64,000 nt of DNA from a virus, in IMG/VR virus record IMGVR_UViG_3300032307_000797. One strand, written 5' to 3'. The notes under the pieces were generated by a model. It was not told where the DNA came from, ran no database searches, and saw only the letters and a program-made list of their open reading frames with translations. Positions 1-63,446 of the stretch are shown in pieces. Position 1 is the first letter of the stretch. Each line of letters starts with the position of its first letter. Both the position numbers and the translations under genes were made by a program.

Positions 1-1146
1 TGTTGGGGTTGGAGTCGGTAAACATTCATACAAACCGCATTCACCCATTATAGTTAAGAATCCGTAACTACCCGATATTGTACCCGGAATTACACAAATT
101 CCTTGACCCGGTCCGACACTAACATTTATTTGTTCAACACCATTACAGTCAGTGTAATTAATCCCTGTGTATGTTTCACTGTTGTTGTTGTAATATTCTA
201 TACATTCGCCACAAGGCGTAGTTGTTGGTGTTGGTGCTACCGATTCTGAACTTGTTAGAGTTAGGGTTAATGTTGGTGTCAATGTTGGAGTTACTGTTGG
301 TGTTGTGGTACTTGTAACTGTAGGTGTTGGGGTAGGGGTACTACAACCTCCACATGGTTCATTTGCTGCCACCCATAGGACACAATCAACTGATGAATTA
401 TCGCAATAAGTTGCTTCAACACCTAGTGAACCCTCTAACGCACAAAGAATATATGTTTGTTGCCCATTTCCCGCTGCAGTAATAATCTGATTATTACCTT
501 CACAATCCACATATGTGACATCATGAGATATTGTGTAATAGTTTGTAATTTCATACATATAACAACATAAAGTTGTTGGGGTAGGTGTTGGAGTTGGGGT
601 ATTAGTTTCTCCCGCAGTTGTCGTTAACGTTTGAGTAGACGTACTCGTAACCGTTGGTGTTGGAGTTGACGTTTCCCCTGCGGTTGCGGTTAATGTAGGT
701 GTACTTGTTAATGTTGGAGTTGATGTACTCGTCAACGTAGGTGTATTGGTACTTGTAACGGTTGGGGTTGGGGTAGGTGTTGATGTTTCTGCAGCCGTTG
801 ATGTTAATGTTGGGGTATTTGTTGGTGTTGGTGTTACCCCCGCAACAACACAATCATTACATCTTAAATCAACCAAAACCACTTGGTATCCACCTTGTAA
901 TTTTGGTGTTGAGCCAGGTACTGAATTAACATGTCCATCACAATGTTCAATAAATAAATAAACATGAGTATATGAACTATCAACATCCAAATCAACAGTG
1001 TGACCTGATATTGATGAGGATGATACCGTTTCAACAAAAGTTGCATTATCAATGTCATAGGTAACACCTGTATAAATGTCATAAGACGTACATGGAGTTG
1101 AACCCGTAAAACTTGATATTGTAACTTGATATTGTGAACTTGGCAT
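1..1146 (-). CDS. Virion/fibre-like protein with Thr/Pro linkers and Cys-rich modules (3' end off window; not in ORF track)
   Basis: Hand translation from ATG at 1146 stays open to base 1 (382 codons): MPSSQYQVTISSFTGSTPCTSYDIY...TPTPTNTPTLT...CCYMYEITNYY...VTYVDCEG...CGECIEYYNNN...YTDCNG. Architecture matches the neighbouring genes. Confidence 0.85.
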   Translation of the reverse strand, partial: MPSSQYQVTISSFTGSTPCTSYDIYTGVTYDIDNATFVETVSSSSISGHTVDLDVDSSYTHVYLFIEHCDGHVNSVPGSTPKLQGGYQVVLVDLRCNDCVVAGVTPTPTNTPTLTSTAAETSTPTPTPTVTSTNTPTLTSTSTPTLTSTPTLTATAGETSTPTPTVTSTSTQTLTTTAGETNTPTPTPTPTTLCCYMYEITNYYTISHDVTYVDCEGNNQIITAAGNGQQTYILCALEGSLGVEATYCDNSSVDCVLWVAANEPCGGCSTPTPTPTVTSTTTPTVTPTLTPTLTLTLTSSESVAPTPTTTPCGECIEYYNNNSETYTGINYTDCNGVEQINVSVGPGQGICVIPGTISGSYGFLTIMGECGLYECLPTPTPT

Positions 1147-1174
1147 CTATCTTAAATATAAAAAATATTGTTTA

Positions 1175-2239
1175 TTATGGACAGTTATATGAATCTAAAA
1201 TTTCACCATTTGATGCAATTTGAAATGCTCTTTTTGGTCCGACCCCACCTTCAGTTAATGCAACCCATAAACCACCTCCATTGGTTGGCGTTGCGGGGTA
1301 CGAATCATATATTATTTCACCATTATTAAGTGTGGATAATGTTTTACCCGGTGCGGCAAAATATCCTCTAATTGTAAGATATGTTGAACACGCTGTTGAA
1401 GCATCTGATGCGTCTACGGATGTTTTACCTAATAAAGTAAGAGGTTGTTGCGTTGCTGTTGGTGTTCTTGTTAGTGTCGGGGTAGGTGTTGGTGTTCTTG
1501 TTAATGTTCTTGTTACTGTTTGAGTAGGTGTTTGTGTTGGTGTTGGGATACAATCCTCTTCAGATGTACATATACCTCCTACTGTCTCAGTTATATATCC
1601 TGCCGGTAAACTTCCCTTTACAAATGGAGCGTCTGTTCCATATTGATAAGTTATATTAGATGTATTTGTTGTACAAATGAATACTCTAACACCACCAAGA
1701 TAGTATTCAAAAGTTAATTGGTCATATTCAACACTTATCATCGTACTACCGGTAATTGGATAATACATAACTTTTATATCTCTACCATATACGTCTTGTA
1801 AAATTGCACTGAAGAGGTAAATCTCAACACAGTCACCTTCAGGTGATGCTGTTAACGTAGGTGTTAATGTCGGAGTAGATGTCGGAGTAGCTGTTGGTGT
1901 GGATGTTGCTACCGTCGTTGATGTTGGGGTTGGGGTTGGTGCATCAACGCAAACCACATCTACGCTAAAACAAATTGTGTCATAACATGGGAACGCCTTA
2001 CTGTCGTGAGTATAGATATTTTTAATGATGTAACGACCAGTGGTTTCATCGGTCATTTTAATCCAATATTGTGTATCAAATGTTAAACCTGTTAATTCAA
2101 TCGTTGTGGCGGTTAAACCTGTACCATACAGTGTGAATGTTGTGTTATCATACTCAGGCCAAGGATTTGAACCACTCTTATATCTTATAGAATAAGGTCC
2201 ATCCGAAACTATATCATATATTCTTACATTTAATCCCAT
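1175..2239 (-). CDS. Virion protein with Thr/Pro linkers and Cys-rich modules
   Basis: 354 aa ORF with TPTPT linkers between small Cys-containing domains; TATTTAT motif just upstream. Confidence 0.8.
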   Translation of the reverse strand: MGLNVRIYDIVSDGPYSIRYKSGSNPWPEYDNTTFTLYGTGLTATTIELTGLTFDTQYWIKMTDETTGRYIIKNIYTHDSKAFPCYDTICFSVDVVCVDAPTPTPTSTTVATSTPTATPTSTPTLTPTLTASPEGDCVEIYLFSAILQDVYGRDIKVMYYPITGSTMISVEYDQLTFEYYLGGVRVFICTTNTSNITYQYGTDAPFVKGSLPAGYITETVGGICTSEEDCIPTPTQTPTQTVTRTLTRTPTPTPTLTRTPTATQQPLTLLGKTSVDASDASTACSTYLTIRGYFAAPGKTLSTLNNGEIIYDSYPATPTNGGGLWVALTEGGVGPKRAFQIASNGEILDSYNCP

Positions 2240-61317: not shown

Positions 61318-61331
61318 AATTTATATTTTTT

Positions 61332-63446
61332 TTAGTCATCATTATAAACGTAATCGTTTAGTTCGGTATCAGAACTAGTATTTTGGAATGTTAAAGATGT
61401 TATATTATCTTCACTAACCAAATAAATTTCAGCAACACCATTAACATCGGTATTCATTACAATAAATCTTTCATTGACACCTCTAGTATCGGACCAAGTT
61501 GTCCAAGTTGTTGTTGCACTATTCAATAATGTACCTGCAAAATTGTATAATCTAATTTTAACGGTATCACTATCGTTAGAATCTTGATAAACAAACATAA
61601 ATTTAGTTTTACCAACATTAATAGAATATTCACCATATTCGGGAAATGAAAATTCTTGAGTTATACCCGTTGAACTTAATACTCTAAAACCTAATTGACC
61701 ACTTGTAAATAATACCATTTCGGTATTTTCTTTAAACGTGTCACTAGCGTATGTCGAAGGTGTGTAAGTGGTGCCATAGTAATCTGTTTCTGTAAAACCG
61801 GTACTACCACTATACACGTAGAATCCTATATCACCCTCAGATTGGATACTAATGTAGGCGTTTTGACCTTGATTATCGGCACTTGAGGCGTATCCTGTTA
61901 TTAAACTATAGTTGTCCAATGTATCTGTAACAACACCTAATTCGTTTATATATTTGTATGTTACGTTATTTCCGTTGTTTGTCCAAATTTGATATAATGC
62001 TTTATTACCTAAAGAATAAAAGTTCCACTGACTAACATCTACAGCATTAATATTCAAACTTTCTATTCGTGTGCTACCAGACATAATGGTTAATACCGAA
62101 GCAACACCATCACCGTTTACACAAGCAACTCTAAATATATCACTTAGTTGACCCCAAGTAGAAATTCTTTTTCCCGAATCATCATTGGCAAACGTATATG
62201 TAGTAAATGATGTTTGATTATTAAACATATACATAATGTCACAGAACGTAACTTCATCACCGTAACTGGTCCCATTACTACTATCAGAAAGTTGAATTAT
62301 AATAGCACCATTATTTCTATCTGTACTAGATGTCCAAAAATTACGGTCACCGTCCATATAGATATTGGTATATTCAGTACCTCTATTATGCGATGTTTCA
62401 ATTAATGTTTGTGTGTCACCATTATAGTGTACAATTTTATATGCAACACTTACATCGAGGTAATTGTAGAAAACTATAGTATGTTTATTTGCTCCGTGAA
62501 ATATACCATCATAACTTGTGTATGTTGCACCGGTTAATGAAATGGTTTCTAAAATAGTTCCGGTAGAGTCATATATTTCATAATTCGTATACGTATTACC
62601 GCTTACATTGTCTTGTGCTTCGGTTAAAACGTGAATAGTGTCGTTTGATGGTACCATTTGATGTCTAACCCACGTCCCTTCAGTCCAAGTTTTAAATAAT
62701 GATGTTGTGCCATCAGTTGGGTTAACAATATATGATGAGCCATTACCATTATATGTCCAGCCACTTAAAGGTCCAATCTCTCTTTTTTTGATAATAAACG
62801 TACCATCAGATGTTGTAGCATCATAATCCCATTCAATATCGATGTAATACGTCTCAGGGTCCCAAGTGTATGTGTAAACTGATACACCATCTGAATATGT
62901 TAACACACCATTGTTTACATCCTCATATGTCACCCATCTACCTTCTAATGTATTTGCACTTCTACTTGAGGTGGTTCCGGTATATCTACCTATTTCAACG
63001 TTACTAGAATTTGTGAATATTACTATTCTATCATCTTCGGTGTCATTATCTCTAAACTCGTACATATATCCCGAATTTGTTAATTCATATATGTTACCAC
63101 AATAATAAAGAGTACTATCAATATCCAAATCTATGATTTCGGCGGTAAAGTCGTTGAAATTTAACATTCCGACACCAAAGTTATCCGAACCAACCATTCT
63201 AGCCACATAAACATATGACTGAATACTTAAATCTGGTTGGTCTACGGTTAATGTGTATGTATAATCATACTCGGCAAAGTAAAGATTATAAACACCATAT
63301 GGATGTGATGTAATGTTATTGAAAGGTATTGTTACTTCACCGATATTAACCGATGTACCTGACGTGGAACCCGTATATGGTACGAATGTAACCGTTGCGG
63401 TTTTACCACTAAGATTTGAACTTGTAATTCTTGCACCTATTGCCAT
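61332..63446 (-). CDS. Beta-rich putative virion protein
   Basis: 704 aa, Thr/Tyr/Asn-rich, ~10 [ST]GxT; ATATTTAT at 63471-63478. Confidence 0.65.
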   Translation of the reverse strand: MAIGARITSSNLSGKTATVTFVPYTGSTSGTSVNIGEVTIPFNNITSHPYGVYNLYFAEYDYTYTLTVDQPDLSIQSYVYVARMVGSDNFGVGMLNFNDFTAEIIDLDIDSTLYYCGNIYELTNSGYMYEFRDNDTEDDRIVIFTNSSNVEIGRYTGTTSSRSANTLEGRWVTYEDVNNGVLTYSDGVSVYTYTWDPETYYIDIEWDYDATTSDGTFIIKKREIGPLSGWTYNGNGSSYIVNPTDGTTSLFKTWTEGTWVRHQMVPSNDTIHVLTEAQDNVSGNTYTNYEIYDSTGTILETISLTGATYTSYDGIFHGANKHTIVFYNYLDVSVAYKIVHYNGDTQTLIETSHNRGTEYTNIYMDGDRNFWTSSTDRNNGAIIIQLSDSSNGTSYGDEVTFCDIMYMFNNQTSFTTYTFANDDSGKRISTWGQLSDIFRVACVNGDGVASVLTIMSGSTRIESLNINAVDVSQWNFYSLGNKALYQIWTNNGNNVTYKYINELGVVTDTLDNYSLITGYASSADNQGQNAYISIQSEGDIGFYVYSGSTGFTETDYYGTTYTPSTYASDTFKENTEMVLFTSGQLGFRVLSSTGITQEFSFPEYGEYSINVGKTKFMFVYQDSNDSDTVKIRLYNFAGTLLNSATTTWTTWSDTRGVNERFIVMNTDVNGVAEIYLVSEDNITSLTFQNTSSDTELNDYVYNDD

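Follow-up and report, generated by a model that had tools for sequence, protein, structure and literature searches.

In mycobacteriophages, Freeman et al. 2023, as cited in PMC12619734, place glycans at the C-termini of siphovirus capsid and tail-tube subunits. PMC3835316, citing Charbonneau et al. 2012, describes the Aah/TibC O-heptosyltransferases (bacterial autotransporter heptosyltransferases, BAHT) as cytoplasmic enzymes that act on many sites of beta-rich surface proteins, with the acceptor located where a loop that joins two short strands begins. Here we compare with such systems a four-residue protein motif, [S/T]-G-x-T, that recurs in a 64,000-nucleotide stretch of viral DNA (IMG/VR record IMGVR_UViG_3300032307_000797; the whole stretch is hereafter called the window). 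The window spans late and replication genes of a jumbo myovirus that is uncultured and has approximately 35% guanine-plus-cytosine (GC) content, and nine of its predicted proteins carry the motif at approximately 5-7 times the level expected by chance.

What this locus shares with the mycobacteriophage system are glycosyltransferases (GTs) encoded by the phage itself, here known from a relative, and proposed targets among the virion proteins. That relative, G001, is an IMG/VR contig of 310 kilobases (kb; 93% complete, sheath 80% identical) that we used as a stand-in for the rest of the window's genome. The two differ in that the phage considered here is a jumbo myovirus whose candidate sites, predicted from sequence, are four-residue motifs inside the sheath inserts and the baseplate and fibre proteins, with none in the tail tube. 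Aah works without a sequence consensus, whereas the motif described below follows a sharp sequence rule and its carriers are phage proteins. The Bacteroidota sequon D-(S/T)-(A/I/L/V/M/T) is likewise a short Ser/Thr signal found on many unrelated proteins; O-glycosylation in Bacteroidota is periplasmic, and virions assemble in the cytoplasm. The motif follows a logic similar to that of the N-x-(S/T) sequon, in which an acceptor is combined with a free x other than Pro and with a hydroxyl residue downstream, but here the acceptor would be Ser or Thr, a Gly is inserted and the spacing is +3. Lastly, type II' two-residue beta-hairpins carry Gly at position L1 and Asn, Ser or Thr at L2, which resembles the motif with its Gly at position 2, the preference for T/N/S/A/G at position 3 and the strand-type flanks; the strict Ser/Thr at i, the Thr at i+3, the lack of Asn/Asp and the on/off distribution among lineages are not traits of a generic turn.

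Excess and residue rules of the motif

Across the 37 open reading frames of the window we found 106 copies of [S/T]-G-x-T, 89 of which fell within the nine carriers (10,496 amino acids (aa) in total). A preliminary description of this DNA had proposed the enrichment from hand counts, all nine of which proved exact, and it held against shuffled sequences: whole-protein shuffles gave z values of 3.7-13.5 (p ≤ 0.002 for every carrier), and shuffles within blocks of 20 residues, which keep the local composition, yielded 18.5 ± 4.2 copies in total versus the observed 89, with a maximum of 32 in 1000 trials. Eleven permutations of the motif residues (T.G[ST], G[ST].T etc.) occurred 17-34 times each in the same carriers. 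The excess persisted when the C-terminal repeat half of the 2810 aa protein, in which Cys-rich modules alternate with TPTLT linkers, was excluded. Codons inside the motif vary, so the signal lies at the level of the protein and a DNA-level signal was rejected. The carriers, together with two proteins that served as negative controls, are as follows.

2267..10699, minus strand: fibre-like protein of 2810 aa; 20 motifs, between residues 228 and 1601
11642..12754, minus strand: 370 aa protein, no family match; 11 motifs against 1.3 expected, with a mean of 10.1 in its orthologues
11942..11965, minus strand: example of chained motifs of the 370 aa protein (SGVT-TGTT at residues 264-271, then SGIS)
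12754..13605, minus strand: 283 aa protein; 5 motifs against 0.24 expected
13607..15349, minus strand: 580 aa protein; 11 motifs against 0.6 expected, z 13.5
15349..19191, minus strand: 1280 aa protein, adjoining the gp6-like wedge gene; 9 motifs against 1.7 expected
19250..21082, minus strand: gp6-like baseplate wedge, by family match; 0 motifs, negative control
31405..37188, minus strand: 1927 aa protein; 7 motifs against 1.6 expected
37501..42285, minus strand: 1594 aa protein; 6 motifs against 1.55 expected
45163..45651, minus strand: tail tube, by family match; 0 motifs, negative control
45946..48792, minus strand: tail sheath of 948 aa, by family match; 10 motifs, between residues 121 and 650
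61332..63446, minus strand: 704 aa protein, no family match; 10 motifs against 1.8 expected

Apart from the sheath, no carrier could be assigned to a family in PHROGs or Pfam. In the sheath, nine of the ten motifs precede the conserved C-terminal sheath domain (matched from residue 608), and within the carriers the copies are often chained. Family matches also identified a gp27-like hub, a gp25-like wedge and a gp13-like adaptor among the tail proteins of the window, and a replication set comprising ribonucleotide reductase, a DnaB-like helicase, a UvsX-like recombinase, a single-stranded DNA-binding protein, an SNF2 helicase and a family B polymerase. The labels "hub" for the 1927 aa protein and "tape measure", as used in the preliminary description, found no supporting family match. 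No motif was present in the tail components regarded as inner or buried, namely the tube, the gp6-like and gp25-like wedges, the gp27-like hub, a 613 aa protein or the gp13-like adaptor, and for the tube and the gp6-like protein this had been reported before. Taken together, the non-carriers (three TPT-linker proteins left out) contained 8 motifs versus 4.7 expected (1.7x), two of which are the Walker A sequences TGKT, also noted earlier, of the DnaB-like and UvsX-like proteins.

The motif is sharp and can be written as hydrophobic-[S/T]-G-x(not P)-T-hydrophobic. At position 1, Ser and Thr were enriched 8.8x and 6.4x, respectively, compared with 1.2x for Asn and 0.7x for Asp; at position 2, Gly reached 7.5x and Ala 1.9x; and at position 4, Thr reached 7.5x and Ser 1.3x. 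Position 3 is nearly free, with T/N/S/A/G favoured, bulky residues accepted and no Pro in 87 copies, and the residues at positions -1 and +5 are hydrophobic. Asn and Asp are classic turn formers, and overall these rules are sequon-like, resembling a sequon more than a turn. They do not coincide with the sequons discussed above: in the carriers, the Bacteroidota sequon was found 31 times versus 37.5 expected (0.83x), which bears out the difference claimed in the preliminary description, and N-x-[ST] occurred at chance level (0.98x). A T.GT excess in Microcystis phage Mel-JY01 and a G[ST].T excess in G001 were considered as related motifs and rejected, being collagen-like GTS repeats and TPTGT linkers.

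A Laminin_G_3 (concanavalin-like lectin) domain was matched at 63514-63978 on the minus strand (3e-15), where the window ends, and adjoins the 704 aa carrier. Between the fibre gene and the 370 aa carrier lies a gene for a 305 aa protein (10699-11616, minus strand) in which the motif is not enriched, and whose conservation (76-98%) exceeds that of its neighbours (48-93%); Pfam, PHROGs and the ESM Atlas gave no lead on it.

Turnover of motif sites and on/off states of genomes

The nine carriers showed no BLAST similarity to one another, and the motif was therefore gained repeatedly, as had been supposed from their unrelated folds. For the same reason, a shared paralogous domain was rejected as its source. 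In the 580 aa family, 54 distinct sequences (58-93% identity) carry 8-16 copies each (mean of 10.3). These are distributed over 46 alignment columns, and no more than 2 of the columns keep the motif in 90% or more of the sequences; permuted motifs average 0.3-3.2 per sequence in this family. The 370 aa, 283 aa and sheath families follow the same pattern. Sheath representatives that are approximately 45% identical contain 41 motif columns, nearly all of them private to one lineage, and most of these lineages retain 4-10 copies despite their differing sites. Within the close clade, existing copies were retained in 0.52-0.72 of the orthologues versus 0.37-0.44 for neighbouring residue triples, while x varied freely. 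The copies are thus under purifying selection, combined with repeated gain and an absence of positional constraint. In distant homologues the motif did not occupy the same aligned positions, as a beta-turn belonging to a shared fold would. This evolution, with a preserved copy number at shifting sites and with genomes that are "on" or "off" as a whole, fits a signal that is read in trans.

A stretch of 20 kb of the window gave no megablast match to GenBank phages, and no close relative was found among them, the closest sheath being that of Mel-JY01 (32%). In IMG/VR, more than 590 contigs encode a relative of the sheath, and the best 80 of these have sheaths that are 73-99% identical and reach lengths of up to 333 kb. 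None of the control genomes, T4, Mel-JY01, NCTB and Flavobacterium phage immuto, contained an enriched protein, and the motif is thus neither a property of the fold nor a general trait of myovirus tails. Among 150 sheath representatives, most near relatives showed a 4-8-fold excess. Three motif-poor sheaths, P0021, P0032 and P0013 (0, 0 and 1 copies, respectively), were nested among motif-rich lineages in an unsupported FastTree topology; P0021 and P0013 belong to lineages without a high-identity match in IMG/VR.

The state of the motif extends beyond the sheath. On the marine Tara scaffold that encodes P0013, the gene order is the same as in the window, and three unrelated carriers could be compared: its sheath, 1594 aa and 1927 aa orthologues contain 3 copies in total versus 3.45 expected (one motif each in the latter two), whereas their counterparts in the window contain 23 versus 4.6. 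The motif-free relative of known source is marine and has a GC content of 27%. An intermediate state was found in G005, a complete genome of 321 kb with a sheath 43% identical to that of the window. In this genome, the excess is kept in the sheath (5 versus 1.0), in the orthologue of a 721 aa protein of G001 (12 versus 1.3) and in two private proteins with 18 and 16 copies, and is lost in the orthologues of the 1927, 1594, 370 and 283 aa proteins, the first two of which have 0 motifs. In G001, the major capsid protein contains 4 motifs versus 0.55 expected. Judging from these comparisons, the presence of the motif is a lineage-level, genome-wide state, and such an on/off state points to a lineage-specific outside factor.

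Two further observations concern the marine relative. Its orthologue of the 1927 aa protein is longer (2545 aa; L419:10327-17964, plus strand) and contains a VanY peptidase domain, which suggests that this family comprises cell-wall-cutting tail or baseplate proteins; the copy in the window has no Pfam match. On both sides of the marine sheath gene (L415 2935-14723) lie three DUF7487 (PF24308) genes together with an ART-PolyVal and a DUF559-like gene; these probable mobile or conflict genes form a dense patch that has no counterpart in the window.

Glycan genes and Thr-Pro linkers

Genes related to glycans were considered in the window and in G001. No GT is encoded in the window, and a single gene has a glycan-related family match; a glycan operon is present in G001.

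57967..58581, minus strand (window): Methyltransf_24 methyltransferase of 204 aa (1e-17), between polB and a linker protein
L098:7470-14576 (G001, 107.5-114.6 kb): glycan operon in the order GT4, GT4, GT2, unknown gene, methyltransferase, Glf (PF03275, 1e-73), GT2

The methyltransferase has a weak, sub-threshold likeness to rhamnosyl O-methyltransferase/CmcI, and G001 lacks both this gene and the 683 aa linker protein at the corresponding place. G001 encodes at least eight GT-like genes, including four PF00535 matches and GT4-like genes, in addition to UDP-galactopyranose mutase (Glf) and a methyltransferase. A trio of GT4-like, GT-B-like and GT2 genes adjoins PhoH and dUTPase, and a strong GT2 of 245 aa is encoded as well. 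The operon itself lies a few kb from a gene for a 4057 aa fibre protein, and genes for galactofuranose synthesis are also present in G005 and in the P0002 phage.

A second kind of O-glycosylation target is possible. Four minus-strand proteins combine TPTLT/TPTxT linkers with small Cys-rich modules (2267-6500, 1-1146, 1175-2239 and 59002-61053); Thr makes up 19-23% of the residues in these Thr-Pro linker proteins, and their repeats match phrog_15511. Thr-Pro linkers of this kind are O-glycosylated in secreted cellulases, and the proteins in question are mucin-like stalks.

Possible readers of the motif

Together, these data lead us to propose that positive selection has favoured hydrophobic-[S/T]-G-x-T-hydrophobic as a turn element exposed at the protein surface. 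It would label those portions of the tail, baseplate and fibre proteins that face outward for a factor acting in trans, which only some lineages of this jumbo-phage group would encounter. The likeliest factor would be a cytoplasmic protein-modifying enzyme, encoded by either the phage or its host, that acts on the position-1 Ser/Thr where a beta-turn begins. For its chemistry, O-glycosylation is the foremost candidate, favoured because of the glycan genes of G001 and the Thr-Pro linkers, though unproven. Aah/TibC provides the precedent for the geometry of such a cytoplasmic enzyme and the mycobacteriophages that for the glycosylation of virions. That the motif is a modification tag read in trans, most likely by glycosylation, is the account we favour, tentatively, as something not quite probable. 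It agrees in part with the preliminary description, which had taken the motif as a recognition signal for a modifying enzyme: the ordered excess and the turnover of sites fit a signal of this sort.

Structural models are consistent with exposure of the motif sites and do not prove it. The AlphaFold2 (AF2) models were poor, with a predicted local distance difference test (pLDDT) score of 55.7 for the 370 aa family and 43.9 for the 580 aa family. In segments above a pLDDT of approximately 65, a strand ends, Gly-x forms a turn or loop and the Thr opens the next strand, as in TGNT 118-121 of the 370 aa protein and SGNT 174-177 and SGRT 228-231 of the 580 aa protein; the SGVT-TGTT chain of the 370 aa protein was modelled as a strand ending in an S-G turn (pLDDT of approximately 70), and a few copies were placed within strands. 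In these confident segments of otherwise poor models, position 1 is modelled in a place like that of the acceptor of Aah/TibC, at the start of an inter-strand loop. The predicted placement in turns or loops and the location of nine out of ten sheath copies outside the conserved domain would both fit exposure of the sites.

Should the motif prove to be a site of modification, tailed phages would have in it their first sequence-defined sequon for modifying the virion, and it would concern an abundant group of uncultured jumbo phages, as judged from the more than 590 IMG/VR contigs mentioned above. It would also bear on how phage particles escape recognition, resist proteases and adhere to surfaces, and modified virions could be predicted from metagenomes by sequence. 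A fuller version of this proposal, which we consider possible and hold with more reserve, is that a large group of apparently freshwater jumbo myoviruses has an undescribed cytoplasmic modification system, in which a sequon on beta-turns coats sheath inserts, the baseplate periphery and fibres, most likely with sugars. The sequon load would be adjusted in each lineage and would have been lost from some relatives, including at least one marine phage. Even if nothing is attached, the finding stands out: unrelated proteins have acquired one four-residue element by convergence, and entire genomes have it on or off, a case of selection at the level of the proteome that calls for an explanation.

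Several findings weigh against a modification tag. We looked for co-occurrence of enzyme and motif across relatives for the GT trio and Glf, and no phage enzyme co-varied with the motif. In the P0021 phage, which has a motif-free sheath, all three genes of the GT trio remain syntenic (29-31% identity); the P0002 phage carries Glf beside polB and its sheath is not enriched; and in G005, which likewise encodes the trio and Glf, the excess has disappeared from the orthologues of the 1927, 1594, 370 and 283 aa proteins. These cases speak against a simple link between a phage enzyme and the motif, and the phage-encoded enzyme envisaged in the preliminary description is not supported by them. There the motif had also been called virion-wide; this is too broad, given that G001 has, at 147-162 kb, S/T/G-rich fibre genes that show no enrichment. 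Furthermore, the assignment of most carriers to the virion follows from synteny and gene order only, the AF2 models that bear on exposure of the sites are poor, and Gly at turn position 2 with T/N/S/A/G at position 3 would also suit an ordinary type II' beta-hairpin. A host enzyme and an unmodified hairpin are both serious alternatives, which fit the data nearly as well.

The stronger of these alternatives, unlikely but deserving serious attention, is that the motif is an unmodified structural element, a type II'-like hairpin with a Ser/Thr-Thr hydroxyl pair that was reused in outer beta-rich domains and is read by nothing. It could provide fast folding, solubility or stability in a given host or habitat, and a role for such a difference would be in line with the marine origin and low GC content (27%) of the motif-free relative. 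The strand-turn-strand junctions in the confident parts of the AF2 models (TGNT 118-121, SGNT 174-177), the hydrophobic residues at -1 and +5, which suit flanking strands, and the lack of a co-varying enzyme all agree with this idea. However, Asn/Asp-Gly is not enriched and position 3 takes bulky residues, the non-carriers of the same phage are near background (1.7x), and P0021, P0013, G005 and the control phages have homologous domains that fold although they lack the motif. A structural preference would also leave the genome-wide on/off state across unrelated proteins unexplained.

We consider it rather improbable that the reader is encoded by the host, for example as a glycosyltransferase, kinase or methyltransferase, in which case the motif would track the host clade. 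The patchy distribution among sheath lineages, with poor ones nested in rich ones, and the failure of phage GT content to predict the motif are what such a reader would lead one to expect, and modification of a phage tail protein that depends on a host enzyme has a precedent (PMC13445384). Against it, the Bacteroidota O-glycosylation sequon and N-x-S/T are at chance in the carriers. Nor do we know of any cellular system with a [S/T]-G-x-T motif.

Very improbable, in our view, is a role of the hairpins as binding units in their own right, whose patches of Thr/Ser hydroxyls would adhere, weakly and multivalently, to polysaccharide or some other surface, much as Ig-like decoration domains do. That the motif is limited to proteins of the tail, fibres and baseplate that are putatively outer, and in the sheath to inserted domains, and that copies are frequently chained, would suit such a role, but the putative receptor-binding fibre genes of G001 are not enriched and four residues are very small for a binding site. 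Finally, S/T/G-rich carriers and the long repeats of the 2810 aa protein might suggest an artefact of composition or internal repeats, which we tested and reject as scarcely credible, since neither local-block shuffles nor permuted motifs reproduce the excess, which survives the removal of the repeat half and is encoded by varied codons.

Outside the main subjects of this analysis, Fe/Mn superoxide dismutase domains were noted in a 514 aa protein of a related phage, whose gene (L413:4773-6317, minus strand) separates the gp13-like gene from that of the SNF2 helicase.

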